Positions 8,089 to 48,667 of a stretch of 64,000 bases of DNA are shown piece after piece. This stretch comes from an uncultured Alphaproteobacteria bacterium. GTDB lineage: Bacteria > Pseudomonadota > Alphaproteobacteria > RF32 > CAG-239. The stretch covers positions 4,770 to 68,769 of the forward strand of contig CAJTMA010000006.1 in NCBI GenBank assembly GCA_910577205.1, read 5' to 3'. The stretch's first letter is position 1. Each line of letters opens with the position of its first letter. Position numbers and translations under genes: made by a program. The notes beneath the pieces are model-generated. The model was not told where the DNA came from. It ran no database searches and saw only the letters and a list, made by a program, of their open reading frames with translations.

Positions 8089-8089
8089 T

Positions 8090-9157: not shown

Positions 9158-9247
9158 TGGGTAGTCCTTTTATCATTTTTTCTTATTTTATAAAAATAAA
9201 AGAAAATAGCAAGTTCTCACCTGCTATTTTCTTAAATTTCAGTTTCA

Positions 9248-10261
9248 CTAATGGTTAGCTTCGAGATATTTATCAAGCGCAATGCCGATTTTCTTTTCAG
9301 AAGTAACGACCGGAACAACCTTGCCGTCAATCACAACCTCTACAGCGCCAACACGACCGACAGAGAGAATCTTGCCTTCTCCGGCAGGAACTTTATAAAC
9401 ATCTCCCGGCTGTAATACTTTGCTTATCCAAAGCTTGTCTTTATCTTTCACTTCGACCCAAGTTTCCTGATTAATTTTCAAAACGACCCGGGCATCAGCC
9501 TTTACATCTGCCGGAGCTGCAGCCGGTTCAGAAATTTCAGCAACAGGTTCGCTGGCGGCAGGCGCTTCTTCTGCCGGAGCAGCGGGAGAAGGTTCAACAA
9601 AATTGCCTTCATTGACAATCACCTGCGGCACATTTTCAACAGGCGCAGCGGTTGTGGTATCAATAATAACCATCCGTCCGTCTTCAGGTGCGGGAGCTGT
9701 TTCATCCAGCGTTGCAAAATCTTCAACCTGCAAAGGAAAACTATCTGCCGGCGCGTTGTCTACGACAAGCTCTTCCTCGGCAACCGGCTCTTCAACCGTA
9801 TTTTGGCTTTCGCTGTATGCCAGCCAGCCGGCATAGAGGGCAATAATTGCCAGCATACTGATTAACAAATACTTTTTGTTCGGCACAGTCGCTTCAGACT
9901 GCGGTTCTAAAACATAGACGTTATCCGCTTTGGCATTCGCATCTGTTTCTTCCTTGAACAGCTGGACAATGCGGGCGGAATTCAGCCCTAAAAACTCGGC
10001 ATATGACCGGATAAAACCAACACCGTACGGCGGCTCCGGAATATCCTCATAGCAACTGTTTTCAATTGCTTCCAGATAAGACGCACGAATATATAACTCT
10101 TTAGCGATATCTGCAATTTTATAGCCTTTTTTAACACGGGCATCATGCAGCATTCCGCCGACCTTGCCTTCATTGCCAGACAAATTTTCTTTAATATCCT
10201 GCACCGCTGCCGCCATTTTTTCTTCTGCGGCCTCAGCCCCTTTTGTTGTTTCCTTTTTCAC
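9248..10261 (-). CDS. rodZ: RodZ-like cytoskeleton-associated protein (XRE-type HTH with a DUF4115-like C-terminus)
   Basis: The N-terminal HTH (GYKIADIAKELYIRASYLEAIE) is followed by a TM segment, an acidic Pro/Ala-rich linker, and a beta-rich C-terminus. Its position upstream of ispG-hisS matches rodZ-ispG-hisS synteny. Confidence 0.7.
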   Translation of the reverse strand: MKKETTKGAEAAEEKMAAAVQDIKENLSGNEGKVGGMLHDARVKKGYKIADIAKELYIRASYLEAIENSCYEDIPEPPYGVGFIRSYAEFLGLNSARIVQLFKEETDANAKADNVYVLEPQSEATVPNKKYLLISMLAIIALYAGWLAYSESQNTVEEPVAEEELVVDNAPADSFPLQVEDFATLDETAPAPEDGRMVIIDTTTAAPVENVPQVIVNEGNFVEPSPAAPAEEAPAASEPVAEISEPAAAPADVKADARVVLKINQETWVEVKDKDKLWISKVLQPGDVYKVPAGEGKILSVGRVGAVEVVIDGKVVPVVTSEKKIGIALDKYLEANH

Positions 10262-10325
10262 GGTCTTGTCCCTTTAATATAATACTTTAATTCTTGCGAA
10301 TCTGCTGAGCATTGAAACATAGTTT

Positions 10326-12593
10326 TTAATAGATTTCAATACCATGGTCATAAGCATAAGCCATTAATTGCGGACGTAAAGTCCTTTTTTTAGATTTCAA
10401 TAAACTTTTCACATAATCGCTCACTTCTCCGGCATTAATGGTGCGAATCATAGATTTGACCCGCCCGAAAGATGTTCCCGTGGATGACAGGTTACGATAC
10501 CCTAAGCCAATCAGCGCCATCGCTTCAATCGGGTTGGAGGCCATCTCGCCGCACACCGAACAATAAACGCCCGCAGCATCAGCCTTGGCAACAATATCGC
10601 CCATCAGCCGCAAAAACGGCGCAGACAGAACATCGTAACGTTCTGCTAAACGCGGATTGCCGCGATCACAGGCAAAAGTAAACTGCGCTAAATCATTTGT
10701 GCCGATGGAGATAAAATCCGTTTGTTTCAGAACCTCTTCCAGCTGAAAGACAATTGACGGAACTTCCACCATTAAGCCCACGTTGACTTTAGAGGGCACG
10801 GGTGTTCCGCGGCGTTTCTCCTTATCCAGCTCAATCATCAGCGTTTCTTTGGCTTCCTCAAATTCCGACACATCCGAAATCATCGGAAACATCACATTTA
10901 ATTCCTTGCCGGCAGCGGCGCGCAGGAAAGCCCGCATTTGCTTGCGCAAAATTGCCCGGCGGTCCAGCGTAATGCGAATCGAGCGCCAGCCGATGGCCGG
11001 GTTTTCTTCTCCCATAGCGCTCCAGTAAGGCAGCAGCTTGTCCGAACCGACATCCAAACTGCGGAAGATGACTTTTTTGTTTCCGGCCTTGTCCATCAAT
11101 TCCTTGTAATAAGATATCTGGCGCTCGACATCCGGCATTACATCGGAAGCCATAAAAGGGATTTCGGTTCGATATAATCCAACGCCATCACAATTCGTGG
11201 TTTCAATATAATCCAAATCAAACGCTAGACCGACATTGATATATTGCCAGATACGCACGCCGTCCAAGGTTTTAGAGGGCAGTTTTTTCAACTCATCCAA
11301 ACGCGCCTGCAGCTTTTGCTTTTCGGCAATTTTGGTTTTAAACTTCTCCTGAATAACCAAAGACGGATTGATATAGACATAGCCGTCATTACCGTCTACC
11401 GCAACAAAATCGCCGGTTTTAATATCATTAAACAAGCCTTTTATTTTGGCAATAACCGGGATATTCAACGCCTTGGCAACGATGGCAACGTGCATTGTCG
11501 GCGTGCCGTCTTCAATAATCAAACCGCGGATTTTATGATAGTCATAATCCATCAAATCCGCAGGCCCCATGGTTTGAGCCACCACGATAATGTCATTGCT
11601 TTTGATAACTTCGCAAGCCGTACAATAATCGCCGCTCAGATAATTTTGCAAGCGGTCGGCGACATCACGTAAATCATGCAGGCGCTCTTTGAGGTATTGG
11701 TCGTTCGTCGCGGACAAACGGTTCCACATATCTTCATAAGCACGCTCGACGGCGGCTTCGGCTGTCAGCCCGGAATTAACATTATCGGCAATTTTTTTAT
11801 ACCAGCCTTTATCCTTGGCAAACATCCGGTAAGTATCCAGAATGTCAACGTGTTCGCCAATGCCGAGTTTGGTTGAGTTCAGTTTTTCATCCAAATCATC
11901 GTTCATTTGGCGGTGCGCCACCTGCAAACGCTCCAATTCTTTTTCTTTGTCCTCGGCAAAAATTTTGCTGACAGCCTGGCGGCGACGATGAATAACCGCC
12001 TGCCCTAACCCGTAGCCTTTGCTTAAGCTCAGGCCTTTTACCCGCTCCCGGGTAACCAGGCCTCGCTCCTTAATCAGCTCTTTTTTATAATTTGACATTT
12101 CATCGGATGCGACAATCTCCGCCAGCACCATGGCCACGGTTTCAAGAATTTCAATTTCTGCCCGGGAGTACTCATGAATGGCTTTGCTTTGAATAACCAA
12201 TACCCCGATAGAACGATTCCAGCGAATCAGCGGCACGCCGAGAAAACTATGGTAAGCATCCTCTCCCAGTTCAGCCTTATATGCATATTTGGGGTGTTTT
12301 GATGCCTCAGAAGCAGCCAAAGAACGCGTTGTTTTCGCAACTTCACCAATCAGCCCCTCGCCATAACGGATTGTCAGCCGGTGTTCTGCAGTTTCATTCA
12401 GACCGCAAGAGGCAAACAGCTCCAGATAGTTGTCATCTACGGCAACATAAACAGAGGCCGCGTCAGAGGAGGTCTGCTCGGCAATTACCCGGATAATTTT
12501 AGACAGTTTAACCGAAACTTCGTCCTGCCCTTCGGTAACCTGACGCAGTTGTTTAAGGATATCCATAGCCTGATTGACGGCGGGTGACTGCAT
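10326..12593 (-). CDS. ptsP: phosphoenolpyruvate-protein phosphotransferase PtsP (GAF domain plus enzyme I of the nitrogen PTS)
   Basis: 755 aa. An N-terminal GAF-like region precedes enzyme I motifs, including the PEP-utilising His region (GGRTSHAAI-like ...GTNDLAQF) and a C-terminal TIM barrel. Confidence 0.85.
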   Translation of the reverse strand: MQSPAVNQAMDILKQLRQVTEGQDEVSVKLSKIIRVIAEQTSSDAASVYVAVDDNYLELFASCGLNETAEHRLTIRYGEGLIGEVAKTTRSLAASEASKHPKYAYKAELGEDAYHSFLGVPLIRWNRSIGVLVIQSKAIHEYSRAEIEILETVAMVLAEIVASDEMSNYKKELIKERGLVTRERVKGLSLSKGYGLGQAVIHRRRQAVSKIFAEDKEKELERLQVAHRQMNDDLDEKLNSTKLGIGEHVDILDTYRMFAKDKGWYKKIADNVNSGLTAEAAVERAYEDMWNRLSATNDQYLKERLHDLRDVADRLQNYLSGDYCTACEVIKSNDIIVVAQTMGPADLMDYDYHKIRGLIIEDGTPTMHVAIVAKALNIPVIAKIKGLFNDIKTGDFVAVDGNDGYVYINPSLVIQEKFKTKIAEKQKLQARLDELKKLPSKTLDGVRIWQYINVGLAFDLDYIETTNCDGVGLYRTEIPFMASDVMPDVERQISYYKELMDKAGNKKVIFRSLDVGSDKLLPYWSAMGEENPAIGWRSIRITLDRRAILRKQMRAFLRAAAGKELNVMFPMISDVSEFEEAKETLMIELDKEKRRGTPVPSKVNVGLMVEVPSIVFQLEEVLKQTDFISIGTNDLAQFTFACDRGNPRLAERYDVLSAPFLRLMGDIVAKADAAGVYCSVCGEMASNPIEAMALIGLGYRNLSSTGTSFGRVKSMIRTINAGEVSDYVKSLLKSKKRTLRPQLMAYAYDHGIEIY

Positions 12594-35838: not shown

Positions 35839-35913
35839 GCCGCTGTAGCTCAGTGGTAGAGCACGTCATTGGTAATGACGGGGTCGCAAGTCCGATTCTT
35901 GCCAGCGGCACCA
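35839..35913 (+). tRNA. tRNA-Thr (anticodon GGU), CCA encoded
   Basis: Manual fold. The acceptor stem GCCGCTG pairs with CAGCGGC. The D stem is GCTC/GAGC. The anticodon stem CGTCA/TGACG carries the loop TTGGTAA, giving anticodon GGT. The T stem is GCAAG/CTTGC. The T loop TCCGATT is slightly unusual. Confidence 0.8.
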
Positions 35914-35916
35914 TTA

Positions 35917-35945
35917 AAAAAGCCTCCTTTAGGGAGGCTTTTTTA
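35917..35945. terminator. intrinsic terminator after the tRNA
   Basis: AAAAAAGCCTCCC-ttta-GGGAGGCTTTTTTAA. Confidence 0.6.
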
Positions 35946-35949
35946 ATGG

Positions 35950-36100
35950 TTATCGTGGGACGGGCGGAATTGCGAAGCAAGTCTGACGAAGCCGGTTGGC
36001 GGCCATCAATCGGCGAAGGACGAGGAGCTAAAGCGACGAGGTCTTGAGCGGCAGCGAAAGATGCGCTCTACCGAAAGCCCCCGCACCTTCAAAGCCAGCG
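35950..36100. repeat. solitary degenerate unit of the 80-bp repeat family (left boundary of the AT-rich islet)
   Basis: Positions 35974-36002 (GAAGCAAGTCTGACGAAGCCGGTTGGCGG) are identical to 39968-39996 in the last unit of the tandem array. The downstream CCGCACCTTCAA motif is also shared with 40052-40063. Confidence 0.6.
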
Positions 36101-36116
36101 TCACCATTTTTAGAAA

Positions 36117-36230
36117 TGCACCTTTTGAGGTGTTTTTTTTGTTATGTAAACCAAGCCTTTCAACAGTCCGATTAATGAGTTTTTGAAATAAGCACTTTTG
36201 TAAGATTATCGGTTCTTTTCGTAGCAATGA
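36117..36230. repeat. ~110-bp direct repeat, copy A (terminator-like hairpin plus conserved tail)
   Basis: CACCTTTTGAGGTG followed by T8, then ...CAGTCCGATTAATGAG.... The diverged copy B lies at 36955-37070. Confidence 0.5.
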
Positions 36231-36832
36231 ATTACGTCATAAAAAAACGGCATCGTAACATTTAAAACAATATCAGGGTTTTGATAGAAATCCCGTAAGT
36301 AAGATTGTAATTCAACTTGAATCACATTCGGCTGATTGAAAGTTTTTTGATAACGCCCTGTAAAACCAACTTTTCCTGTATAATCAGGGTGATTGACCAC
36401 CGTTTTTAATTTATATTGTTTTGCAATTTGCAAAATATGATTTAAATAAGGATAATTCTTATCATCAAAATCAGCTATACCTAAACAGATATCATAATCA
36501 ATTTCTTGATTAAAACCATGAATATCTAAAAAGTAATGGTCTTGTAAATTGTGTTCTGCAACATAATCAGAGATGAGAAATTTGTAAGGGGTAAATTTTG
36601 TTCGCACTAAAGTTGATATTTTGTTTACAGCCCCAAGATGCTTAACAAGCGCACCAGTATATAGATCTGCGCATTTTTCTTTTTTATTACAAAAACTCCG
36701 TGTTGCGTGCGGCGCAGAAAGGATTAATGAAGAAGAATAATCTATAAACTCAAAAACATCTTCTCTTTCTTCTTGTCCATGAGAACGATTTAAGATGAAA
36801 CATTCGTTATATTTTTTTAGAGTATCAATCAT
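36206..36832 (-). CDS. hypothetical protein, possibly a zinc amidase of the PghP / N-formylglutamate-amidohydrolase-like fold
   Basis: 208 aa from AT-rich DNA. The motifs SAPHATRS and FLDIHGF resemble the His-containing zinc-site motifs of phage-type poly-gamma-glutamate hydrolases. This comes from memory and is not verified. The gene is flanked by ~110-bp direct repeats. Confidence 0.5.
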   Translation of the reverse strand: MIDTLKKYNECFILNRSHGQEEREDVFEFIDYSSSLILSAPHATRSFCNKKEKCADLYTGALVKHLGAVNKISTLVRTKFTPYKFLISDYVAEHNLQDHYFLDIHGFNQEIDYDICLGIADFDDKNYPYLNHILQIAKQYKLKTVVNHPDYTGKVGFTGRYQKTFNQPNVIQVELQSYLRDFYQNPDIVLNVTMPFFYDVIHCYEKNR

Positions 36833-36954
36833 AATATTAAGTATAGATATTTAATCGTTAAAAATCAGTGTCAAATAACTTAATTTTTACTCAACTCCTT
36901 AAACCTCTCGGTCTCATCAGTCCGATAATCGCACTGTATCGCGCACCATTTGTT

Positions 36955-37070
36955 AAAATACACCTTTTAAGGTGCTTTTTTGTTATGAAAACCAAGGTTT
37001 ACAGTCAGTCCGATTTGAGAGATTTTTAAATAGCATTTTTTAATAATCTATCGGACTTTTGCCAGAAAGA
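36955..37070. repeat. ~110-bp direct repeat, copy B
   Basis: CACCTTTTAAGGTG followed by CT6, then ...CAGTCAGTCCGATTTGAGAG.... It is about 70% identical to copy A. Confidence 0.5.
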
Positions 37071-37199
37071 TAGCAGGCACAAGTGTTTACTCTTCTTAAT
37101 CCGTCTTCAATAAATTTTAATTGTTTGATTTTACCATATATAAAATTTAATAGTAAGATTACCTTATGTACATTCTGATAGCTTTTTTTTGCACCTATC

Positions 37200-38051
37200 T
37201 TGCATTCATTATCTTGTATTATTGATGCACATTTTTCAAACAGTATTTTTAATAAAACAACATCTCTTATTTTTTACGCTACCATAACAAATATAATTAT
37301 TATTCCTTTTTTATTTTTGTTTGGAACTCCGACACTCCCTTCGTGGTCTTCATTAACGGTCATTTTCATCGTTGGGGCGATAGATGTATTTTATCAAATT
37401 CCGTATTATATTGCTTTGCGTAAGGTTGACACATCAATCACGGTTGCATTGTTTTCTCTTGGAAAAGTATCTGTTCCGATTTTAGCATATTTCATTGTTG
37501 GTGAAAAATTGAGTATAATGCAATATGTTGGGTTTGGCATTATTCTTTTATCAAGCTTTTTATTAAACTTTAATCGAAAACAGTTAAAATTAAATATTGC
37601 CTTTTTTCTTATGCTAATAGTGTCATTAGCTTTATCACTAGCTTCGGTATTGGAAAAATATTCTCTTAAAGAAATTGATTTTGTAACACTTATCTTCTGG
37701 ATGGTTTTATTTTCAACATCAATATCTTTTTCTTTCCTTTTTATTAAAAATATAAGGCAGGACATTATAGATACATTTCCGAAATATAAAAAAGCCATTT
37801 CACTGTTTTTAAGTAATGAGGTATTGAGTCAGGGAGGCTCATTGGCAATGATTATCGCTCTTTCTCAACTTCCTGTTTTAACTATAAAATCAATAAATTC
37901 ATCTCAAAGTATATTTACTTTATTGTTTGGTTTTGTTCTCTATAAAATTTTTGGAGATAGGTTTAAAGAAAATTTAACTCGAGATAAAGTTATAAAAAAA
38001 CTAATTTCTTTTATTTTTATTATGATAGGAATATATTTGGTTTTAAGTTAA
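37200..38051 (+). CDS. DMT/EamA-like 10-TM transporter
   Basis: 283 aa and very AT-rich. It has ten hydrophobic helices in a 5+5 arrangement typical of drug/metabolite transporters. Confidence 0.55.
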   Translation: MHSLSCIIDAHFSNSIFNKTTSLIFYATITNIIIIPFLFLFGTPTLPSWSSLTVIFIVGAIDVFYQIPYYIALRKVDTSITVALFSLGKVSVPILAYFIVGEKLSIMQYVGFGIILLSSFLLNFNRKQLKLNIAFFLMLIVSLALSLASVLEKYSLKEIDFVTLIFWMVLFSTSISFSFLFIKNIRQDIIDTFPKYKKAISLFLSNEVLSQGGSLAMIIALSQLPVLTIKSINSSQSIFTLLFGFVLYKIFGDRFKENLTRDKVIKKLISFIFIMIGIYLVLS

Positions 38052-38197
38052 CGTCAGTTTTATATTCCTGCTCAGGATTTTAAGTCTAATAATTGCTCAG
38101 CATAAATTTTTCCAGAAACTATACCTGCAGAAGCTTTGTGTTATTTTCAATTTTAGTCATAAAAAAGACTTGCTTTGAAAAAAGCAAGTCTTTTTTA

Positions 38198-38848
38198 TTA
38201 TATGCGGCTTTCAGTCCATAGTGGTGTTAAAGTTTCTTTATACTGAGTATAATCAGTATATAACTTTTCATATTTGACAATCAGGTGCTTTTTAGCCATC
38301 CGCCACTCCGGATGTTCTTTAGCATTGATAACATGGTAGCTGTTGTCAGACAAAATAAAATGGAAAAGGTAAAACTCTTCACCATAAATACGGCCTGTAT
38401 ATCTTCCATTAATTTTGCCGTTGCTTTTTGACATACCAGCACCGACACCGCCACCAATACCGAGAACACCTCCGCCACCTCCGATTGATGATAAGTCACC
38501 GTTCAAAGAACCGTGCTCTTGAGTATCGGCTTCTTTTTCCCAGGAACAGGCAATAATTTTCAGCTTTTTGCTAACATTATTCTTTTTTATAAATTCCTGA
38601 AGTTTGTCAGTTTCTGCTTGTCGTGTTGCCCGTTGTTTTTCCACCTCAATCAGGTAAACAGAATCAACAGACAATCTGATAGATTTTTGTACCGTTTGTT
38701 CACAATTCGCAAGATATTCTTCTATTTTCTTTTGTTCCGCTTGCAGTGTGGAGATTTGAGAATCAGAGATAAAGTTTTCTGCTTGATATTTTTGAAGCTG
38801 ATCTCTGGAGGCTTCCCCATATAAAAGCAATAGCTTCCCACACAACAA
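38198..38848 (-). CDS. hypothetical protein with a coiled-coil N-terminus and a glycine-zipper motif. It may be the 3' part of a frameshifted gene.
   Basis: The GGGGGVLGIGGGVGAGMS tract resembles a glycine zipper of the SlyB/17-kDa-antigen type. There is no signal peptide of its own. The first 127 bp overlap the upstream ORF in another frame. Confidence 0.4.
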   Translation of the reverse strand: MLCGKLLLLYGEASRDQLQKYQAENFISDSQISTLQAEQKKIEEYLANCEQTVQKSIRLSVDSVYLIEVEKQRATRQAETDKLQEFIKKNNVSKKLKIIACSWEKEADTQEHGSLNGDLSSIGGGGGVLGIGGGVGAGMSKSNGKINGRYTGRIYGEEFYLFHFILSDNSYHVINAKEHPEWRMAKKHLIVKYEKLYTDYTQYKETLTPLWTESRI

Positions 38849-39252
38849 CTTCCGATAAACATGATGGAAGCAATCAGCATACCCGAATTACTGCTTTCTT
38901 CATAAACTTGCCCTCTAAAATCAACTTTGTCCCGCGGTATAGATTTTAGAAATAAAAATATAGAAAAAACAATAGGTATGACCATCCAATGTTTGATATC
39001 ATCATATGAGCTACTCATTTTTTGCTTTTCGGCGGTTAATTCATTTTTCCGATTGGAAATCGTTTGAGTAATCGCCGATAACTTTTTTCTTTGCTCGTGA
39101 TAACCGTGCTTGCTTATTTCTTTATCGTAAAATTGCTTTTCGATAACCCGTTTATCGATGTTAGATAAATATCCTGTAGCGTTTTGCGCATACAACAAAC
39201 AAAATATCGGCATAAGTGCCGACAAAACTGCAATAATAATTTTCTTTTTCAT
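38722..39252 (-). CDS. hypothetical secreted or membrane protein (signal peptide plus two TM helices)
   Basis: MKKKIIIAVLSALMPIFCLLYAQN is a signal peptide. Hydrophobic segments follow (WMVIPIVFSIFLFL, MLIASIMFIGSCCVGSYCFY) and the tail is basic. Confidence 0.45.
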   Translation of the reverse strand: MKKKIIIAVLSALMPIFCLLYAQNATGYLSNIDKRVIEKQFYDKEISKHGYHEQRKKLSAITQTISNRKNELTAEKQKMSSSYDDIKHWMVIPIVFSIFLFLKSIPRDKVDFRGQVYEESSNSGMLIASIMFIGSCCVGSYCFYMGKPPEISFKNIKQKTLSLILKSPHCKRNKRK

Positions 39253-39423
39253 AATGTTTTATTTTAATTGTTAATATTTTTTAAAACAAAAAACATTTTT
39301 GAAACCAAGATTGATTACTCAATAATTGACTACAATAATGCTTTTTAATGAGTAAAGAATATCACATCCCCCTATTTTTGCAAGCACAAAAATTGACAAA
39401 AAAGGAGAGATAAGGAGTTTTGC

Positions 39424-40026
39424 GGCGGAGGGAGAGGCGCTTTATGGCGAGGGGTGAGCCGAGTTGCAAAGCAAGTTTGGCAAGCCGGTTGGCGGCGGTC
39501 ATCGGCGAAGCGAGAGGCGTTTTGAGGCGGAGGTTGAGCCGAGTTGCAAAGCAAGTTTGGCAAGCCTGCCGGTGGCGGTCATCGGCGGAGGGAGAGGCGC
39601 TTTGAGGCGGAGGTTGAGCCGCGTTGCGAAGCAAGTCCGACAAGCTGGTTGGCGGCAGTCATCGGCGGAGGGAGAGGCGTTTTATGGCGTGGGGTGAGCC
39701 GCGTTGCGAAGCTAGTCCGGCAAGCCGGTTGGCGGAGGTCATCGGTAGAGGATGTGCCGCAAAGCGCCACAGGTTGGGCTGAGTTGCGAAGCTAGTCCGG
39801 CAAGCCGGTTGGCGGAGGTCATCGGTAGAGGATGTGCCGCAAAGCGCCACAGGTTGAGCTGAGTTGCGAAGCAAGTCCGGCAAGCCGGTTGGCGGCGGTC
39901 ATCGGCGGAGGATGAGGAGCTTTGTGACGTGGGTTGAGCCGTGTTGTGAAGCAAGTCTGACGAAGCCGGTTGGCGGAGGTCATCGGCGGAGGATGAGGCG
40001 CTTTGTGGTGTGAGTTGAGCCATTAA
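39424..40026. repeat. tandem array of about 7.5 copies of an 80-bp repeat, not a CRISPR array
   Basis: Full units start at 39456, 39536, 39616, 39696, 39776, 39856 and 39936. A representative unit is GAGCCGAGTTGCAAAGCAAGTTTGGCAAGCCGGTTGGCGGCGGTCATCGGCGGAGGGAGAGGCGCTTTGAGGCGGAGGTT. Copies are about 85-97% identical and there are no unique spacers. Each unit contains the small palindromes TTGCaaaGCAA and GCCGgttggCGGC. Confidence 0.85.
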
Positions 40027-40032
40027 CAAAAG

Positions 40033-40063
40033 GTGCGGACGCTATCGCTATCCGCACCTTCAA
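40033..40063 (-). terminator. hairpin downstream of the autotransporter stop, a weak terminator
   Basis: AAGGTGCGGA-cgctatcgcta-TCCGCACCTT has a 10-bp stem. On the minus strand the hairpin is followed only by the short T-containing tract TTGTT. Confidence 0.35.
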
Positions 40064-40089
40064 TATCTGCCCTTTTCAGTCTAAACGCA

Positions 40090-43000
40090 CTACCAGTTAT
40101 AACTTGTACCCAAGCCTAAGGATGATGCCCGGTAATGACTGCCGAAGGTATGGTTGGCCCAGCCGTATGCTGAGAAGTAATCAGAGAAACCATAGCGGCC
40201 GCCTACTTCTAAACGTCCCAATGTTTGATTTTTCAGCACGTCCATTTTTCGCAAGCCAGTCACTTTTACCTCATCGCCATCATTAAATGTTTGAACCAAA
40301 ATTGGTTTGACATAAACATTGCCGTAGCCGTCATCGACTTCAAATGTCTTGGTCAATCTGGTACCAAATTCTGCTTCCATTTGTCTTAATGGGGTATACT
40401 GAGCTGTTTTGCCAGCGCTATCACTTGCATTATCATACTTGACCTGTGTATAAAAGAGGCCGACTTCCGGTGTGAAATAGAGCGATTTGTTCAGCGCATA
40501 ATCATAACCAAACGCGACACTACCACCAAACTCTGTTCCGTCAGTATTTGAGGTTATACCGTCTTTCGTTTTGATATCAACCTGCTGTATCCCGCCAAAC
40601 AAAGTCGCAAAAGCCCACCAATTTCTTTGATCGTAACGGTAATACAATCCGGCCAAATAGCTATCGATGTCAATTTCCGATTCTGTTACTGAGTAATAAT
40701 AACGGCCATAGCCATTCATGTCATAATTACCCTTACGATAAGAGAAGAACAATCCCAGTTTGTTATACAAGTCGTGTTGCAGCGTACCGCCGGCTTCCAA
40801 GCCCCAAACGTCAGATTCAACACCGACAGTTTCTTTATTCGTTGAAGAATAATAAACAGCGTTCGCCCACAGCGTATCAAACGGTTTACCATCCCAATAA
40901 AAATCATAGAAACCGCAAGACGGGCAATAAAGTCTGTTTCCCTGAACCTGACGGTCAATATTGCCAATCATTCCTCTGGTCTGCTCCAGTGCGGCTACAG
41001 GTAAAGCCTGATAAGCAATGACTTCAGGCACAACCTTACGCCCACGGCTAAATACCGGAGAAGAGATATTCGGAATATTGGGCACATCCGGGATATTCGG
41101 AACATCCGGAACGCCGGGAAGATCCGGCTGGGCATTCTTATCAGGATTGTCACTGTCGTTCATAACCAAATCCCATTGATTGGCATTATTTCCAAGGGAA
41201 GCGTATTTGACATCATACAAATAAGGGCTTCTGTAAACGCGCGAAACCACAAATGATCCCTCGTTACCGGTCGTATCATTTTCTGACTGTGCAAACAAGA
41301 TACTTCCCTTGCCGCGAATATCCGTGTCGGAAGAAGCATGAACAATCACTTTAGTCACACCTTCAACATTACCGGCGATATGCAACTCGTCCGCCGTCAT
41401 ATTATCCGGGTCAACATTAATATGCAGAAAACTGTCTGTCGCCGAATATCCTTTGAGGTTGACAATATCCCGATAATTGTTGGCCAAGCTAAAGACCGCA
41501 TTGTTCAATGTCAAAGTGGTTGCAGCGTCATCACGGTTGACAGAGCCATCCGTGTTCAACGCGGCAGCAAACGCACCTTTGCTATCCCAATTGCGGGCGC
41601 TTTGATCTTCGTGCTGATAGTCGCCGAAAACAAGAGATGTTCCGCTGACGGTTACACTTTCGGCATTGATAATATCGTTGTTCATTGCAATATATTGGGA
41701 AGTTGTTCCCTTAACGGCATCAACGACATCGTCTCCCGTAAAGTTGTATATTCCATTTCTCAAGTTATCATTAATAACCCAGCTGCCGCCGCCGGAAGTA
41801 TCAAAAGTAAATTCAGAAGTTGTATTTCCGAGCACAGCATTATAAATTTTGCCATAACTGCCGTTTTCCGTATAGTTGCCGGACATGAAATATGTATCAG
41901 CTCCGGAAGCGAATGTCATATTGCCAAGCGTATATACCGCGCCGCCCGATTTGGCATGATTGTTAAGGAAATTGCCGCTGATTTTGCCAAATACAGCTCC
42001 GGTATTGCCATAGATAGCGCCACCGTATTCGACAGCCGAGTTCCCGATAAAATCACCGCTGATAGTCCCAATGGTTTTATTCAAATCATTATAAATAGCG
42101 CCGCCGCGTTTTTCCGCTGAATTGGCGATGAAATCTCCGGAGATGTTTTTGATTTCCTTAGCGTTTTTGATAGCGCCGCCATGCCCCAATGTGGCATTGC
42201 CGATGAAGTTTCCGTTAATTTCATTAATGGTTCCCATACCGCCATTGTTAATAGCACCGCCGCCATAATCACTGACATTGCTGTTTGCCTTGTTAGCAAT
42301 AAAATCACCGGTAATTTTGTTAATTGTTCCTTCGTTTTCTATTGCCCCTGCTTTAATCCCTGCTGTATTGCCAATGAAATCTCCGGTAATATCGCCGATT
42401 TGCCCGTAATGGTAATTGTAAACAGCACCACCGATTGCAGCGGCCGAATTAGCGATAAAATTGCCGGTAATATCTTCAATAACCCGACTAGTGCTATTAT
42501 AAATAGCGCCGCCGGAGCCGTTTGTACCATCAACATGATTGCCGACGAAATCACCGGTTAGATTGCCCATCGTGCTGTTATTGCTAATAGCACCGCCGTT
42601 AGTTATTGCGGCATTGGCAATAAAGTTGCCGGTAACATCTCCGGTTGTTCCCTCATTGTAAATCGCACCGCCTGAGCCGCCTCCCGGAGCCTGCCCTGCT
42701 ATATTGCCAATAAAGTCACCGTTAATATTGCCAATTTGCGCGTTTTTATAGTTATAAATAGCGCCGCCGTTTCCTTTTTGGTCGCTTCGCGCCAGCCCTG
42801 TATAGTTGCCAACAAAGTCACTGTTTATTTCACCTATTGTTCCGGAGTTGTAAATAGCGCCGGCACCACTTGGAGCATAGTTGTGTACGAAACTCCCCTT
42901 AATACTGTCAATTGTTCCGCTGTTATTGATACCGCCGCCTTTTGAAGCACTTCTTTCGATATTTACAAAATCGGCATCAACATCACCGGTTAAACCTGTT

Positions 43001-43446
43001 TGAGCAGATGTGTATTTTGTGCGACCGGGAATATCCGTATATGTATATTTGAAATACTGCGTGTCACCATTAGGAAGTTGGAGTTTAACGACATCATCCC
43101 CTTCGGCAGAAACTTTTTCCCATGAAATATTTTCCGCCGATGAAAATTTATCCTGAAGCATGACTATTTTATAATATTTATTGCTTAAGTTACCCTTATC
43201 GTCTGCTTCCTGAATAATAAAATCATAATCGCTGTCAGAACCTTCCTGATATGTAAAGGCACTGGACGGGAGTGTCGTTAAGTCAAACAAAGCGTTCGGG
43301 GTTTCCGTCAATGCTCCGGCAGGCGCAACACCGTTTGCTTCTGCGCTTGATTTATTTAATGTTGGTTCTAAAGACCATGCTGAAGACGACACGCCCCCTA
43401 AAGCGGCGGCCATTAACATTATTGTCCAAGTAGTTTGTTTAGTCAT
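40090..43446 (-). CDS. autotransporter outer-membrane protein with a Pmp-like GGAI/FxxN repeat passenger
   Basis: The signal peptide is MTKQTTWTIMLMAAALGGVSSSAWS. There are more than 20 degenerate repeats of the form G(D/N)FIGN...GGAIYN. A C-terminal beta-barrel region of about 280 aa ends in ...GTSYNW, an aromatic terminus. Confidence 0.85.
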   Translation of the reverse strand: MTKQTTWTIMLMAAALGGVSSSAWSLEPTLNKSSAEANGVAPAGALTETPNALFDLTTLPSSAFTYQEGSDSDYDFIIQEADDKGNLSNKYYKIVMLQDKFSSAENISWEKVSAEGDDVVKLQLPNGDTQYFKYTYTDIPGRTKYTSAQTGLTGDVDADFVNIERSASKGGGINNSGTIDSIKGSFVHNYAPSGAGAIYNSGTIGEINSDFVGNYTGLARSDQKGNGGAIYNYKNAQIGNINGDFIGNIAGQAPGGGSGGAIYNEGTTGDVTGNFIANAAITNGGAISNNSTMGNLTGDFVGNHVDGTNGSGGAIYNSTSRVIEDITGNFIANSAAAIGGAVYNYHYGQIGDITGDFIGNTAGIKAGAIENEGTINKITGDFIANKANSNVSDYGGGAINNGGMGTINEINGNFIGNATLGHGGAIKNAKEIKNISGDFIANSAEKRGGAIYNDLNKTIGTISGDFIGNSAVEYGGAIYGNTGAVFGKISGNFLNNHAKSGGAVYTLGNMTFASGADTYFMSGNYTENGSYGKIYNAVLGNTTSEFTFDTSGGGSWVINDNLRNGIYNFTGDDVVDAVKGTTSQYIAMNNDIINAESVTVSGTSLVFGDYQHEDQSARNWDSKGAFAAALNTDGSVNRDDAATTLTLNNAVFSLANNYRDIVNLKGYSATDSFLHINVDPDNMTADELHIAGNVEGVTKVIVHASSDTDIRGKGSILFAQSENDTTGNEGSFVVSRVYRSPYLYDVKYASLGNNANQWDLVMNDSDNPDKNAQPDLPGVPDVPNIPDVPNIPNISSPVFSRGRKVVPEVIAYQALPVAALEQTRGMIGNIDRQVQGNRLYCPSCGFYDFYWDGKPFDTLWANAVYYSSTNKETVGVESDVWGLEAGGTLQHDLYNKLGLFFSYRKGNYDMNGYGRYYYSVTESEIDIDSYLAGLYYRYDQRNWWAFATLFGGIQQVDIKTKDGITSNTDGTEFGGSVAFGYDYALNKSLYFTPEVGLFYTQVKYDNASDSAGKTAQYTPLRQMEAEFGTRLTKTFEVDDGYGNVYVKPILVQTFNDGDEVKVTGLRKMDVLKNQTLGRLEVGGRYGFSDYFSAYGWANHTFGSHYRASSLGLGTSYNW

Positions 43447-43610
43447 TTTCTTGCCAAAAAATTAGTATATGTATCTTAAAATACATTAAATGTATAATGA
43501 ACGGGTTAAAAAATTACTAAAACACTTATGAGAGGGATTTTAATCAATGTTCCAAGCTTTGAATAAAACAAAAACACCGCAATTCAAATGAACTGCGGTG
43601 TTTTTGTTAG

Positions 43611-44234
43611 TTATGCAAACTCATTGTAAAGAAAATACATAGCCGCATACTCTTTTGTTTGTTCTTTGCCCTTTTCAGAAATTTGGGTACGGATATCTGC
43701 CAAGGCCATTAACGCAGAAATCCTTTTACCTTTCAAATCCGGCAAAGTTTCTCCAAAAGTTTTGGTCTGAAGTTTTTGCCACCAGGGTTGTTTTTGATCC
43801 TCGACGTTAAACTCCACAACAAAGCGGCGGCTGTATGAAACTTCCTCCTCTCCATTCGAGGTACGATACAGCTCAACATCATAGTTTCCGTCAGGAACAC
43901 TTGTGAATTCCAAACACCCTTTGGGAATAAGGTAAATCTCGCCGGAGAATGGAATGTACACGCCATCAAAATCAGACGTACTGCATTGGTTCAGGCAGCA
44001 TAGTACCATAATGGTATGTTCCCTGAAGAAACCATAGTCATAGCCAAGCTTCTTGCAGGCCGAATAATATTTTTCGGACACCCGGGCACAAACTAACTCG
44101 GTTTGCGCAACGCTGAACGGGGTGAATGAGAACGCAGCCGATACCATATCCTTTACTTCTTCGGCGCCAAACTTCTGGGATGCTTTCAAGATGCTGTCAT
44201 CACATGACATCTTCGCAATAATTATTGTATTCAT
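43611..44234 (-). CDS. hypothetical protein
   Basis: 207-aa ORF in an AT-rich patch. It has several Cys and no recognisable motif. Confidence 0.4.
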   Translation of the reverse strand: MNTIIIAKMSCDDSILKASQKFGAEEVKDMVSAAFSFTPFSVAQTELVCARVSEKYYSACKKLGYDYGFFREHTIMVLCCLNQCSTSDFDGVYIPFSGEIYLIPKGCLEFTSVPDGNYDVELYRTSNGEEEVSYSRRFVVEFNVEDQKQPWWQKLQTKTFGETLPDLKGKRISALMALADIRTQISEKGKEQTKEYAAMYFLYNEFA

Positions 44235-44444
44235 ACTTTTGTGAAATAATTAAATTAAAAATATCAAATCGGAAATCTTATAGACAATTTCGAAAACTTT
44301 GTCAATATACTTTTTAAGGGAAACAAATTTTAATAAAACTATTGAAATGCATAAGAAAACATTATATGTTATTGCTAATTATTTATTATTTTGTTTTCGT
44401 TTCTGTTCAGGAAACTATGTTAAATCTTAAAAATATGTATTATT

Positions 44445-44678
44445 ATGGACACAAAAAAAGTTTTAGTTCTTGAATGCGTTGCTGCCAAACTTCAAATCAG
44501 CCCTCAAGAACTTGCTCAATGGCTTGAGAATCGCAAACAGGCTCAACAGCTCGCAGCGAAAGCATCGTTTGAGGATAAACTTCAAGGATTTGTTATCTTG
44601 ACAGAAGCTGTTACAGACCTTGCTGAAGATATCAAAAAGAAAGCGGCCTCCGACGCGCAATCATGGAGCGGACATTAA
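44445..44678 (+). CDS. hypothetical small helical protein
   Basis: 77 aa. It is followed by a clean intrinsic terminator. Confidence 0.4.
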   Translation: MDTKKVLVLECVAAKLQISPQELAQWLENRKQAQQLAAKASFEDKLQGFVILTEAVTDLAEDIKKKAASDAQSWSGH

Positions 44679-44692
44679 GCTGCTTCCCCATT

Positions 44693-44725
44693 CAAAAAAA
44701 CTCCCTATATCAGGGAGTTTTTTGG
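44693..44725 (+). terminator. intrinsic terminator
   Basis: AAAAAAACTCCCT-atatc-AGGGAGTTTTTTGG. Confidence 0.5.
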
Positions 44726-44803
44726 TTTAAACATAACTCAGCTTTGTGCCCGGACGAAGCGCGAACAGTCAATCCTTTTGCGCCAGCCAGGGAGATGTTT
44801 ATT

Positions 44804-45685
44804 TTACAATGCTTCAAGCATCTTTTTATAATAGTTTAAAACGGTTCGAATCTTGGGAATATCTTTAATCGTCCGGTGGGTAATCAAATAGATTGTTGCT
44901 TCGGCACTGCATGGGATATTATCCAAACACACCATTCCATGGCCGCCGCGGACAAAGTTCAGCGGCATGATGGCAATTCCTGACCCGCTGATAGCCAAGT
45001 CATTAACGACAAACGTACTGTTTGAAAAACAGATGCCTTTCTCGGCTTTTTGCTGCAATTTTTTAGCTTCCGGCGTTTGCCACCAGCCCTCATTTTTGAC
45101 AAGAAGCCGATGATTTTTTAACAAATCGTTCAAATCCTGCGGGTAAGAATGTTTAGCCAAATATTCTGAAGATGCAAAAAAGCCGAATTTTACTTTCCGG
45201 CTGTATACAACCACCAAATCTTCCCCTTTGGGAACAGTATAGCTCATGCAGATATCATAAGCCATTTTGTGCATATCCGGCGCTTTATCAAAAGTATCAA
45301 TAAATAAAGACAAATCAGGAGATTGCTCCAACAGTTCTTCTAGGCAGACATACATATTGCTGCGCGCGTCGCGCTCATATGCAATACGCACCTCCCCTTT
45401 AACATTGGTTTCAGAAGGAACAATGGCATAGGCTTGCTGCAAATGTTGTTTAAGGACATCGGCAATTGCAACCACCTTTTCGCCTTTCGGTGTCAGGGTA
45501 CAGCCCTTTTCATCCGAAGCGACGAGCTTAACGCCCAATTCACTTTCCAGATTGTTAACATACTTATTTAACGTATCAATTGAGGTATTCAAAAATTTGG
45601 CAGCATTCCGTTTGCCGGAACTCTTTTTAATCGCATGGAGCATCATAATACCCTCCATGTTCATTAAATCTTTTTTACTAAACAT
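44804..45685 (-). CDS. LysR-family transcriptional regulator
   Basis: The N-terminal HTH (AAKFLNTSIDTLNKYVNNLESELGVKLV) is followed by a LysR substrate-binding domain. Confidence 0.85.
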   Translation of the reverse strand: MFSKKDLMNMEGIMMLHAIKKSSGKRNAAKFLNTSIDTLNKYVNNLESELGVKLVASDEKGCTLTPKGEKVVAIADVLKQHLQQAYAIVPSETNVKGEVRIAYERDARSNMYVCLEELLEQSPDLSLFIDTFDKAPDMHKMAYDICMSYTVPKGEDLVVVYSRKVKFGFFASSEYLAKHSYPQDLNDLLKNHRLLVKNEGWWQTPEAKKLQQKAEKGICFSNSTFVVNDLAISGSGIAIMPLNFVRGGHGMVCLDNIPCSAEATIYLITHRTIKDIPKIRTVLNYYKKMLEAL

Positions 45686-45828
45686 TATGATAGTCCTTAA
45701 ATGTTAGCATAGTAGGCTAAAGTTAATGATAATGGCGGTATACACTACAATACTTTTAATTGCAAGTCTTTTTATTATATAAAAGTTAATATTTGCACAT
45801 ATTAATTGTACTTGCAATATCTGCAAAT

Positions 45829-45999
45829 TTATGCGTCTTCCTGAGATTCTTTTTTTAATTGCTCTCTGGCGGCCTGCTGTTGTTTGCGTTTTTGCAAATT
45901 CTTTTGCAGCGCTTTGGCCTCACGCTCAAAACGTTCTTTGCTGCGCGGCCCGTGCGCCGTGTTCTTTTTTTCTTTTTTTTCGGTCATCGTCTTATCCAT
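45829..45999 (-). CDS. small Lys/Arg-rich protein (56 aa), absent from the ORF track
   Basis: ATG at 45999. The protein is MDKTMTEKKEKKNTAHGPRSKERFEREAKALQKNLQKRKQQQAAREQLKKESQEDA. The listed + strand ORF 45831-46037 is its antisense. Confidence 0.35.
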   Translation of the reverse strand: MDKTMTEKKEKKNTAHGPRSKERFEREAKALQKNLQKRKQQQAAREQLKKESQEDA

Positions 46000-46121
46000 T
46001 ATGTTATTATAAGCTTATCTTAGAGCGGAGAAGTTAACAAATCATAACCTTAAAACCGTTTCGTCACTTTTAACTATCTTTTTAAGCCCAAATCTGTTAA
46101 ACTTCTTTTAGATACTTATGC

Positions 46122-46979
46122 TTGGAAGTTAAAAACATGACTGACAACGACGAGAAAAATAAAGAGAAAAAAGCTAAAAAACAAAAAAAGCAAACCAAGA
46201 AAGGCAAAGCATTAGCCCTGATTGCCGGCGGTAAGGCACTGCAAGTTGCCGGAAAAGCAATGAAAGCGACGGCTAAAGCCATGCAGCAGGCCGCCAAAGT
46301 CATGTTGAGAACGGCCAAAGCAATGGCAAGAACCGCAATTAAGATGGTTCAAGCTGCGGCGAGCACCGGGCCGGCTGCGGTTGTTTTAGTTCCTGCCGCC
46401 AGCGTAGCCGCCGCAGGTTTACTTGCAGGGTCTGCAGCATTAGGCGCGACAGGTATGGCTTTATCCGTCACCGCCAAAGTAACAGACAAAGTTGGCAGCC
46501 TGATGCAGAAAAGCGGTCAAAAAATGCAGGAAAAAGGCAATAAGATTCTTGCAAAGATTAAAGAACAAGGCATTGAGCAAACTCAGGAAGCTTCCAAAGA
46601 ACAAGAGAGCCAGACAATCCAGAATATTATGGAAAATGTGATGGAGCAGCAAACTAAGGGGCAAATGACGACTCAAGACAAAGACCAAATTGCCGCATTA
46701 TCGGGCAGACCAGCTCCCAACGGGAGAACAGCCTCCCCATCCCAAGCCAATAACAACCAGCCGGAACAAACCCCGCTTCAGCCAAGCGCGGCGGCAGAGA
46801 ATGCTCCGGCCTCACCACAGGCGGCCAGCGAAAAACAGGTTACCCCTAAGAAAAACAAGACCGGGCGCAAGATTTATGAACTTAGCGGCAGAAGAAGCTC
46901 TCGCAGGAAGACACCGGTTAAGCAAACAACCCTGAATCCGAATATGCTGACAGCAAACAGAGGCAGAAGCGCCAGCTAG
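46122..46979 (+). CDS. hypothetical low-complexity protein with AKAM-type amphipathic repeats, a hydrophobic core, and a Q/P-rich basic tail
   Basis: A K-rich N-terminus is followed by the repeats AGKAMKATAKAMQQAAKVMLRTAKAMARTAIKM. A hydrophobic stretch follows (AAVVLVPAASVAAAGLLAGSAALGATGMALSV). The tail is Q/P/S-rich. Confidence 0.5.
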   Translation: MEVKNMTDNDEKNKEKKAKKQKKQTKKGKALALIAGGKALQVAGKAMKATAKAMQQAAKVMLRTAKAMARTAIKMVQAAASTGPAAVVLVPAASVAAAGLLAGSAALGATGMALSVTAKVTDKVGSLMQKSGQKMQEKGNKILAKIKEQGIEQTQEASKEQESQTIQNIMENVMEQQTKGQMTTQDKDQIAALSGRPAPNGRTASPSQANNNQPEQTPLQPSAAAENAPASPQAASEKQVTPKKNKTGRKIYELSGRRSSRRKTPVKQTTLNPNMLTANRGRSAS

Positions 46980-47111
46980 CCGCTTTAAGTGTCACTCCCT
47001 CTAAAAAAATATTGAAGTCATTTTTTTTTAACTTATCCGTTTTAGAATAACGGTATAATCAATTATGCCCGTCAACAGGAAGAAACAGGCTAGAAGAAAA
47101 GGATAAGTTTC

Positions 47112-48404
47112 ATGGATAAAATTAAAATCATCGGCGGCAACCGTTTGGAAGGCAAAATTTACATCAGCGGCGCAAAAAATGCCGCTTTGCCGTTAATTTG
47201 TGCCAGTTTATTAACCGACGAAACTATTACGCTGACGAATATGCCGGCATTATCCGATATTCGTTCAATGAATGCTTTGCTGGAACAAATGGGCACACAA
47301 ATTGACAGTTTTGATGATTTCTTAGACGGGCATGAAACCAAAACCTATTCCTATCGCACGCCCAAATTTACCAGTTTAATTGCGCCCTATGATTATGTCC
47401 GCAAAATGCGGGCATCCTATTATGTTTTAGGACCGGTATTGGCCAGAGAAGGCCATGCAGAGCTTTCCCTGCCGGGCGGTTGCGCCATCGGTGCGCGGCC
47501 GATGGATATCCACCTGACCTCTCTGGAGCAGATGGGAGCAAAAATCGAAATCAAAAACGGTTATGTTCACGCCGATATTAACGGCAAGCTGAAAGGCGCG
47601 CACATCACTTTTCATACGGCTTCTGTCGGCGCAACCTGCAATATTTTGATGGCCGCAACTTTGGCTGAGGGCGAAACTATTATTGAAAACGCCGCCAAAG
47701 AACCGGAAATCGCCGATTTGATTGATTTATTGATTGCCATGGGAGCGCAAATTGAAGGCAAGAACACGTCCAAACTGGTTATCCAAGGCGTGGACAAGCT
47801 TCATGGCGCAAGACATAAAGTAATCGCAGACCGTATTGAAGCCGGGTCTTATGCCATTGCCGCGGCAATTACCAACGGACGGATTGAACTGGTTAACGCG
47901 CAGGCTTCCACTTTGCGCACACCGCTGGAAATCCTGAAAGCGATGGGCGTTTCTGTTGAAGAAGGCGATAACAGCCTGACAATTGACGCAACCAACCGAA
48001 AATTAACCGGGCAAGATATTATGACCGATTATTACCCCGGATTTCCGACTGATTTGCAAGCGCAGTTTATGGCTCTTATGACTGTTTCGGAAGGCGCGTC
48101 GCTGGTGACGGAAAATATTTGGGAAAACCGCTTTATGCACGTTCCGGAATTAATGCGCATGGGGGCTAACATTAATGTACACGGCCACGCTTCGGCTATT
48201 GTTCGCGGCGTTAAGCAACTTTCCGGCGCGCCAGTCATGGCAACGGATTTACGAGCCTCATTCGCTTTAATTCTGGCCGGACTGGTTGCAGAGGGCGAAA
48301 CGATTGTTAACCGCGTTTATCATCTGGATCGTGGCTATGAAAAGCTGGATGAAAAACTGAAAGCTGTCGGTGCTAATGTTGAGCGGATTAAAGAAGCTGA
48401 ATAA
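47112..48404 (+). CDS. murA: UDP-N-acetylglucosamine 1-carboxyvinyltransferase
   Basis: 430 aa. The N-terminus MDKIKIIGGNRLEGKIYISGAKNAALPLICASLLT is the typical MurA start. The active-site Cys loop is present (PGGCAIGARPMD). Confidence 0.95.
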   Translation: MDKIKIIGGNRLEGKIYISGAKNAALPLICASLLTDETITLTNMPALSDIRSMNALLEQMGTQIDSFDDFLDGHETKTYSYRTPKFTSLIAPYDYVRKMRASYYVLGPVLAREGHAELSLPGGCAIGARPMDIHLTSLEQMGAKIEIKNGYVHADINGKLKGAHITFHTASVGATCNILMAATLAEGETIIENAAKEPEIADLIDLLIAMGAQIEGKNTSKLVIQGVDKLHGARHKVIADRIEAGSYAIAAAITNGRIELVNAQASTLRTPLEILKAMGVSVEEGDNSLTIDATNRKLTGQDIMTDYYPGFPTDLQAQFMALMTVSEGASLVTENIWENRFMHVPELMRMGANINVHGHASAIVRGVKQLSGAPVMATDLRASFALILAGLVAEGETIVNRVYHLDRGYEKLDEKLKAVGANVERIKEAE

Positions 48405-48416
48405 TATAAGCTAATC

Positions 48417-48450
48417 AAAAGCCCCTTGCCCAAGCAAGGGGCTTTTTTTC
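48417..48450 (+). terminator. murA intrinsic terminator
   Basis: AAAAGCCCCTTGC-ccaa-GCAAGGGGC followed by T7. Confidence 0.7.
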
Positions 48451-48478
48451 ATTGCAAATTAACTTTTTTCCCTTACAA
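48451..48478 (+). promoter_or_regulatory. near-consensus sigma70 promoter of the structured RNA (module copy 2)
   Basis: TTGCAA (48451-48456), a 16-nt spacer, then TACAAT (48473-48478). The same arrangement is found in copy 1. Confidence 0.6.
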
Positions 48479-48484
48479 TCATTC

Positions 48485-48648
48485 TCGCAGTCCGGAGACG
48501 GGTTGTGGGGTATGCAAACTCCTACAAGAAAAGAACGACTCCTTTTGAGGGGAGCCGGGGATATAAGGCTATGCGCGAATAACCCGGACTGTTCTTGTAC
48601 AGTTTGCAACTCCCCTGCCTTTAGACTTCTAAAGGCAGGTTTTGTTTT
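48485..48648 (+). ncRNA. candidate structured small RNA or cis-regulatory leader (module copy 2)
   Basis: It begins about 7 nt after the -10 element. The helix CAGTCCGG (~48486) pairs with CCGGACTG (~48586). Hairpins include GGGGTatgcaaACTCC and ACTGTtcttgtACAGT. The terminator is CCTGCCTTTAgacttcTAAAGGCAGG followed by TTTTGTTTT (48614-48648). The ORF-like reading 48452-48703 is not conserved at the protein level between the two copies. Confidence 0.5.
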
Positions 48649-48667
48649 AACTTATAAAACCCCTCTG

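Follow-up and report, generated by a model that had tools for sequence, protein, structure and literature searches.

In the polymorphic membrane proteins (Pmps) of Chlamydia, published models bury paired FxxN and GGA(I,L,V) motifs inside a beta-helix, where they form the core of each rung, with loops projecting from one face (PMC10715098, PMC11166332). Between 9 and 25 rungs have been reported for Pmps (PMC10715098), and the strict chlamydial Pmp has a middle domain, PF07548, between its repeats and its barrel (PMC11166332, PMC10715098). Proteins like them are also found in Akkermansia, Phycisphaerae, Methanobrevibacter and Trichomonas (PMC10715098, PMC11166332). According to PMC2997323, adhesion by Pmp repeats was shown experimentally for Pmps of C. 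pneumoniae. For Pmp21 of that species, repeat-mediated adhesion is reported. Here, a gene with repeats of this type is described from a 64,000-nucleotide stretch of DNA (the window) of an uncultured Alphaproteobacteria bacterium (assembly GCA_910577205.1, contig CAJTMA010000006.1, positions 4,770 to 68,769 of the forward strand). With a probability of roughly 90%, its product is a classical (type Va) autotransporter with a Pmp-type beta-helix passenger, most likely a surface adhesin.

Domain organisation and fold

The ORF list and the translation give a single unbroken open reading frame (ORF) of 1118 amino acids (aa) on the minus strand, in agreement with the first-pass annotation of the window. 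Its product has the features of a type Va autotransporter, namely a PF03797/TIGR01414 barrel, an N-terminal Sec signal (by inspection), a predicted pore helix and an aromatic residue at the C-terminus. PF03797 of Pfam covers aa 859-1095 with 81.5 bits (cutoff 26; E=1.1e-22), and TIGR01414 of NCBIfam matches aa 662-1118 (E=8.5e-23). Together with 12 long strands in the structure model, these matches bear out the C-terminal beta-barrel of the first-pass annotation, which had made its whole call depend on a beta-domain at this end. The translation ends S-Y-N-W, the YNW ending having been read correctly before, and homologues end in YNW, YSW or YAF.

An AlphaFold2 model built on an alignment of 55 sequences has a mean predicted local distance difference test (pLDDT) score of 84.3. 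Residues 1-60, comprising the signal peptide and a disordered tail, are modelled with a pLDDT below 50. From about residue 165 to 770 runs a continuous beta-helix, with values of 89-98 through the repeat rungs, which carries on into a motif-free part at 516-770. A proline-rich disordered linker (771-802), helices at 807-835 and a barrel of 12 long strands (838-1118) complete the chain. The top Foldseek matches in the PDB are the autotransporter translocators AaaA, EstA, NalP, EspP, BrkA, Hbp and AIDA-I (E 4e-10 to 4e-8), with target TM-scores of up to ~0.8 for barrel-only entries. The barrel superposes at ~2 Å onto NalP and AIDA-I, and the arrangement of the pore helix before the barrel is the same in the matched transport units of NalP, EspP and AIDA-I. 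A sequence search of the PDB gave no match at E ≤ 0.01. The features are collected in Table 1.

Table 1. Features of the autotransporter gene and its flanks, in window coordinates
Feature	Coordinates	Strand	Basis or remark
Autotransporter coding sequence, 1118 aa + stop	40090..43446	-	ORF list and translation; 2688 homologues
Putative signal peptide, aa 1-25 (MTKQTTWTIMLMAAALGGVSSSAWS)	43372..43446	-	read from translation; pLDDT <50
Disordered N-terminal tether, aa 26-60	43267..43371	-	pLDDT <50 at residues 31-60
N-terminal beta-rich cap domain, aa 61-165	42952..43266	-	model strands 64-161, pLDDT 81-95
Pmp-type repeat region, aa 168-515, 12 full + 1 partial rungs	41902..42945	-	regular expression, unit HMM, TIGR01376, model pLDDT 89-98
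Motif-free C-terminal part of beta-helix, aa 516-770	41137..41901	-	alignment, TIGR01414 from aa 662, model strands throughout
Proline-rich flexible linker, aa 771-802 (PDLPGVPDVPNIPDVPNIPNISSP...)	41041..41136	-	pLDDT <50 at residues 786-802
Predicted alpha-helical segment plugging barrel pore, aa 807-835	40942..41028	-	model helices 807-823, 826-835
12-strand autotransporter beta-barrel, aa 838-1118, ending Y-N-W	40093..40935	-	
Terminator-like hairpin, GGTGCGGA-(11 nt loop)-TCCGCACC, then TTTTGTT	40025..40058	-	read from sequence
Conserved upstream block TTTAGTAATTTTTTAAC, 17 nt, in 164-bp intergenic region	43505..43521	-	comparison of four loci
80-bp tandem array	39423-40021		69 bp beyond autotransporter stop codon, past terminator

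By inspection, the N-terminus (MTKQTTWTIMLMAAALGGVSSSAWS, followed by LEPTL) reads as the Sec signal peptide that had been annotated, with a basic n-region that includes K3, a hydrophobic core spanning residues 9-19 and the residues A-W-S just ahead of the predicted cleavage point. The hydrophobic core is kept in the 55-sequence alignment, in which MTK is also the consensus start. The gene call in a 99%-identical copy begins nine codons further in; M1 is favoured here since the MTK start is conserved in relatives. The tether that follows is the chief site of length difference among close homologues, and indels of +48, +9, -23 and -28 aa map to it in relatives of ~50-77% identity. At the other end of the passenger, the linker, measured from an LxMN motif to a PEVIAY stretch, varies from 24 to 56 aa among homologues, and a 9-bp tandem repeat at 41065-41127 (TRF; repeat family D9) codes for part of it.

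Pmp-type repeats and the passenger helix

The repeat consensus is G(D/N)F(I/V)(G/A)N-x(4-11)-GGAIYN-x(2-4)-IGxI(T/S/N). Units were delimited by cutting at each G(D/N)F(I/V)(G/A)N, and a hidden Markov model (HMM) was built from them. The HMM retrieves 12 complete units (aa 184-515, with a period of 25-34 aa) and a partial one at 168-182, and nothing further in the protein. Each complete unit pairs one FxxN with one GGA(I/V). A regular-expression search counts 12 FxxN and 10 canonical GGA(I/V) motifs plus the variants GAGAI, KAGAI and GGGI, all within aa 168-515. The repeats are far beyond chance, because 100 shuffles of the repeat region average 0.02 HMM matches.

The GGAI/FxxN signature of the first-pass annotation is thus real, as the motifs are paired at rung-like spacing. 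Its count of more than 20 degenerate copies is too high for the combined unit, of which regular expression and HMM find 12 full and one partial. A number above 20 is reached only by counting tetrapeptides singly (~24) or by taking all of the ~22 rungs of the modelled helix, ~10 of which (aa 516-770) lack the repeat motif.

The profile searches that had been proposed for the repeats gave a divided answer, with PF02415, the Pmp repeat of Pfam, scoring 15.9 against a gathering cutoff of 20.6, and TIGR01376 (POMP_repeat) of NCBIfam scoring 18.5 against a cutoff of 15. Judged by profile matches, the repeat type of the family is nonetheless Pmp and not in doubt, since three of the eight relatives scanned (P0005, P0007 and P0096) clear the PF02415 cutoff with 27-28.5 bits.

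Within the passenger, conservation is highest in the motif-free rungs at aa 516-770, which are dense in invariant columns, including N559, D560, D614, H675, R736, Y738 and Y742; the invariant N559-D560 pair comes after the last motif rungs. Chlamydial Pmps in the strict sense have a conserved Asp at 'Rung 0', from which the ladder of Asn residues is seeded. At the equivalent place, homologues have weak sub-threshold matches to Pertactin (PF03212). This region would be an autochaperone or stalk, a role that fits because of the strongest conservation in the passenger, the partial coverage by TIGR01414 and the faint PF03212 matches in relatives.

Size variation of the repeats

The internal repeats had been put forward as a candidate for recombinational size variation between strains. 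If the gene were a contingency locus, frequent internal recombination would make strains differ in rung number, rod length and antigenicity. Across the family, protein length does follow motif count (r ~0.7, with 6-15 FxxN per protein). Some relatives of ~50-66% identity also differ by rung-sized indels in the repeat region (-26 at aa 474, -22 at aa 400, +39 and +23 near aa 471-479), and the tandem repeat in the linker could be seen in the same light. The strain-level comparison, made with one near-identical strain, gives this proposal no support: the 99%-identical copy (P0001, at locus L004) has an equal number of repeats and no indels. Members of 90% clusters vary in length through start-codon calls alone, and the closest relatives (60-81% identity) change length mostly in the disordered tail (+48, +9, -23) and not in the rungs. 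At the DNA level, the units are 60-77% identical to each other and the longest exact repeat in the gene is 19 nt. A contingency locus is thus improbable. Whole-rung indels are confined to comparisons of diverged relatives. The family therefore gains and loses rungs in the course of evolution, and the comparison with one near-identical strain gives no sign of a strain-level switch.

Of the 14 amino acid differences from the 99%-identical copy, five are concentrated in a single repeat unit, aa 313-328 (window 42463-42510; L004 8910-8957). They result from eight point differences in ~47 nt, mostly transversions, and turn GGAI into GRAN in L004. The cluster reflects either a patch of recombination or faulty assembly of the metagenomic contig.

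Relation to other autotransporters

Like the chlamydial Pmps (PmpA-I of C. trachomatis; Pmp21/PmpD), the protein has a signal peptide, a beta-helical passenger and a PF03797 barrel, in this order. Its 12-13 rungs fall inside the Pmp range of 9-25 and resemble those of a Pmp in their chemistry; in both, a motif-free proximal helix comes next, and both have a proline-rich region. However, the middle domain PF07548 was found neither here at E ≤ 1 nor in eight relatives at E ≤ 0.1, and a different conserved motif-free helix occupies its place. Also unlike in the chlamydial proteins, PF02415 stays below threshold, an N-terminal cap and a disordered tail are added, and the host is apparently an alphaproteobacterium of the gut. 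On these profile results, the right label is Pmp-like and not member of the chlamydial Pmp family, because PF07548 is missing and the host lineage differs.

Whereas chlamydial Pmps form a multi-gene paralogous family, there is one copy here in the 64-kb window, in which tblastn found no second autotransporter or passenger paralogue. In a related genome (L007, GCA_948940615.1), an orthologue with 73% protein identity lies head-to-head with a second autotransporter gene of 1443 aa and beside a gene for a LysR-type regulator (L007 2644-6975, minus strand, and 8001-11558, plus strand). Since the two autotransporter genes of L007 are adjacent, at least some genomes hold side-by-side paralogues.

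Compared by description, non-chlamydial Pmp-like proteins (PF02415/TIGR01376), such as A0A1C7PBX1 of Akkermansia glycaniphila and those of Methanobrevibacter and Phycisphaerae, use the same repeat type as a beta-helix scaffold and are often gut-associated (PMC11166332, PMC10715098). The Akkermansia protein is likewise a classical autotransporter (PMC11166332, PMC10715098). By the same comparison, the lineage described here differs from them in its own conserved cap and proximal helix. The type Va beta-helix adhesins AIDA-I, Ag43, UpaB, pertactin and Vag8 share less than 17% identity with the protein. Its rung motif is Pmp-type and not the 19-residue repeat of the AIDA type, and by inspection it has no extended signal peptide region.

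Among the candidates scored, 2688 homologues were found at E ≤ 1e-3, with identities of 99% (P0001), then 81%, 73% and 66%. Searched with just the passenger (aa 26-800), a library of 1.84 billion proteins yields 2538 clusters (50% identity) at E ≤ 1e-3, of which 274 are at E ≤ 1e-30; the matching proteins reach 5666 aa. Relatives bearing organism names come from uncultured Alphaproteobacteria or 'Azospirillum sp.' metagenome-assembled genomes (MAGs) in mouse- and human-gut catalogues, at 41-51% identity.

Proposed assembly and function

In the type Va pathway, the precursor is exported by Sec, the barrel is inserted with the help of the barrel assembly machinery (BAM), a linker helix lies in the pore and the passenger folds vectorially from its C- to its N-terminus. 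For the present protein, the Sec machinery would take the precursor into the periplasm, BAM would insert the 12-strand barrel (aa 838-1118) into the outer membrane and the linker helix (807-835) would fill the pore. The passenger of ~740 residues would then thread outward, folding from its C-terminal end. The conserved motif-free rungs (516-770) would probably fold first, as autochaperone or stalk, and serve as the template on which 12-13 Pmp-type rungs (168-515) form a regular right-handed beta-helix, in which, by analogy with the modelled chlamydial Pmps, FxxN and GGA(I/V) would be buried and stacked between rungs. The small cap domain (61-165) and the disordered N-terminal tail would top the helix, and the proline-rich linker would keep the rod off the membrane. 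By the same kind of analogy, the repeats would provide the scaffold, with binding left to the cap, the tail and the variable loops.

A role as adhesin or aggregation factor on the surface of a gut-dwelling alphaproteobacterium is most likely, with moderate confidence and by analogy, adhesion being the function with the best support among proteins of this kind (PMC2997323). Pfam and NCBIfam detect no protease, lipase or other catalytic domain. The first-pass annotation had spoken of a repetitive, adhesin-like Pmp-repeat autotransporter, and this interpretation is supported in the sense of Pmp-like, with adhesion as the probable function. Several points weigh against it. The PF02415 score stays under its threshold here, the signal peptide was recognised by eye alone, sequence searches detect no solved structure, and the named relatives on which the organism assignment rests are just 41-51% identical. 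In addition, the passenger may be either cleaved or retained.

As a quite unlikely alternative, this could be a lineage-specific Pmp-like family of gut Alphaproteobacteria in which something other than the repeat rod does the work. Either the cap and the hypervariable tail would form a new module for binding host or mucus, or an invariant H-E-D/W-D cluster in the proximal helix (including H612, E613 and D614) would be an unrecognised catalytic site. The cap has conserved positions in the 55-sequence alignment (Y91, Y92, K93, W109, Y131, Y134 and Y136), and its sole family match is a weak, sub-threshold one to DUF4302 in Pfam. If true, either version would make the protein more than a generic adhesin scaffold.

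With a similarly low probability, the passenger could be no adhesin but a polysaccharide lyase, glycosidase or epimerase whose beta-helix has the pectate-lyase fold. The autotransporter would then serve just to bring this carbohydrate-active enzyme to the surface, where it would attack host mucin or dietary glycans. The shared fold and the conserved polar cluster would be what such an enzyme predicts, but identity to such enzymes is just 7-14%, a level reached by any beta-helix, and no glycoside-hydrolase or lyase family matches at E ≤ 1 in Pfam or NCBIfam. The polar cluster sits in a stretch of lower model confidence (~611-640, where 10-residue blocks have mean pLDDT values of 67-81) and is membrane-proximal, in a region typically conserved for folding. 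Furthermore, known Pmp-repeat proteins are not enzymes (PMC10715098). A host-defence shield like Bordetella Vag8 and BrkA, which bind a complement regulator or block complement, with attachment as a secondary role, is the least probable. The protein is just 7% identical to Vag8, a match that goes back to common beta-helix geometry only, no sequence pointer to a complement-related ligand was seen, and complement presumably exerts no obvious pressure in the lumen of the gut.

As a Pmp-like autotransporter, the protein offers a well-modelled example of the GGAI/FxxN rung as a general building block of autotransporter beta-helices well outside Chlamydia. The bacteria concerned are apparently poorly studied gut Alphaproteobacteria, represented chiefly by MAGs. 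Should they become cultivable, the protein would be worth considering as a colonisation factor or surface antigen. Beyond annotation its significance is small. Genes of this kind number in the thousands, and the present one opens no long-standing question.

Transcription unit and genomic neighbourhood

The autotransporter gene looks monocistronic, because the preceding gene carries its own hairpin terminator, followed by a 164-bp AT-rich spacer, and a terminator-like hairpin lies ~30 nt past the autotransporter stop codon. The latter hairpin, with its 11-nt loop, was missed by a consensus terminator scan limited to loops of 8 nt. Within the spacer, the block TTTAGTAATTTTTTAAC is invariant in the window, L004, L005 and L007, the remainder having diverged, and may be a promoter or regulatory element. 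A perfect ATAC-N7-GTAT dyad 5' of the start codon, with a LysR gene two genes away, was considered as a LysR-type operator and dropped, as the dyad is not kept in L005 and L007. On the plus strand within the gene, the ORFs 41338..42120 and 42181..42561 are treated as probable shadow ORFs of the conserved minus-strand gene. The gene has a G+C content of 0.444 and a G+C content at third codon positions (GC3) of 0.427, slightly under the core genes (0.46-0.48; GC3 0.50-0.52) and far over the adjacent low-GC segment (0.31-0.39).

Housekeeping genes of the window include dnaE, ptsP-like, glgX-like, serS and murA. L004 is 97.6% identical at the nucleotide level over 39663-48655, and its autotransporter gene, a 207-aa ORF, the LysR-type regulator and murA are collinear with the window. 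In the related genomes L005 and L007 (81% and 78% nucleotide identity), the gene keeps some of these neighbours, in incomplete or rearranged form. The autotransporter gene is therefore stable in position, with variable DNA adjoining it. The first-pass annotation had described adhesin-like autotransporters as typical accessory or host-interaction genes. The label 'accessory' is doubtful, because the place near murA and the LysR gene is kept in the near-identical strain and the gene recurs in relatives.

The 207-aa ORF directly upstream (43611-44234, minus strand) is present in the window, L004, L005 and L006 and not in L007. It has no family match and no signal peptide, and it is the gene with its own terminator; with these properties and its absence from L007, no functional link to the autotransporter can be argued.

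The repeat array that had been annotated next to the gene is real and consists of 80-bp units. It has 7.5 copies in the window and 4.3 in the 97.6%-identical L004 (11410-11757), so it is the array, and not the autotransporter gene, that varies between strains. No Rfam match was found for the array, its units fold no better than shuffles, and an exact-pattern scan of JGI metagenomes for its core found none. Coding is argued against, since the period of 80 bp is not a multiple of 3. A tRNA-Thr(GGT) gene (35839-35913) is followed after 40 nt by a lone partial unit of 49 nt (35954-36002) that has 86% identity to the last unit of the array. The low-GC segment at 35.9-39.4 kb is thus bracketed by tRNA-Thr and the array.

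Collinearity between the window (35916-39400) and L004 (12000-17990) breaks just past the tRNA-Thr gene. Window positions 35916-37057 are replaced in L004 by ~5.4 kb with Fic, NERD/Zn-ribbon and recombinase-Zn-ribbon genes, and positions 37669-39176 are not present there. The interval 35916-39400 has 31-42% G+C against ~45-48% elsewhere and looks like a tRNA-linked island hot-spot. Within it, two overlapping minus-strand ORFs, 38722..39252 (176 aa) and 38198..38848 (216 aa), jointly match one 351-aa signal-peptide protein of L005 (71% and 85% identity), which is likewise encoded downstream of the L005 autotransporter gene. Since both match a single protein, the window copy is split by a frameshift, as either a pseudogene or a sequence error.

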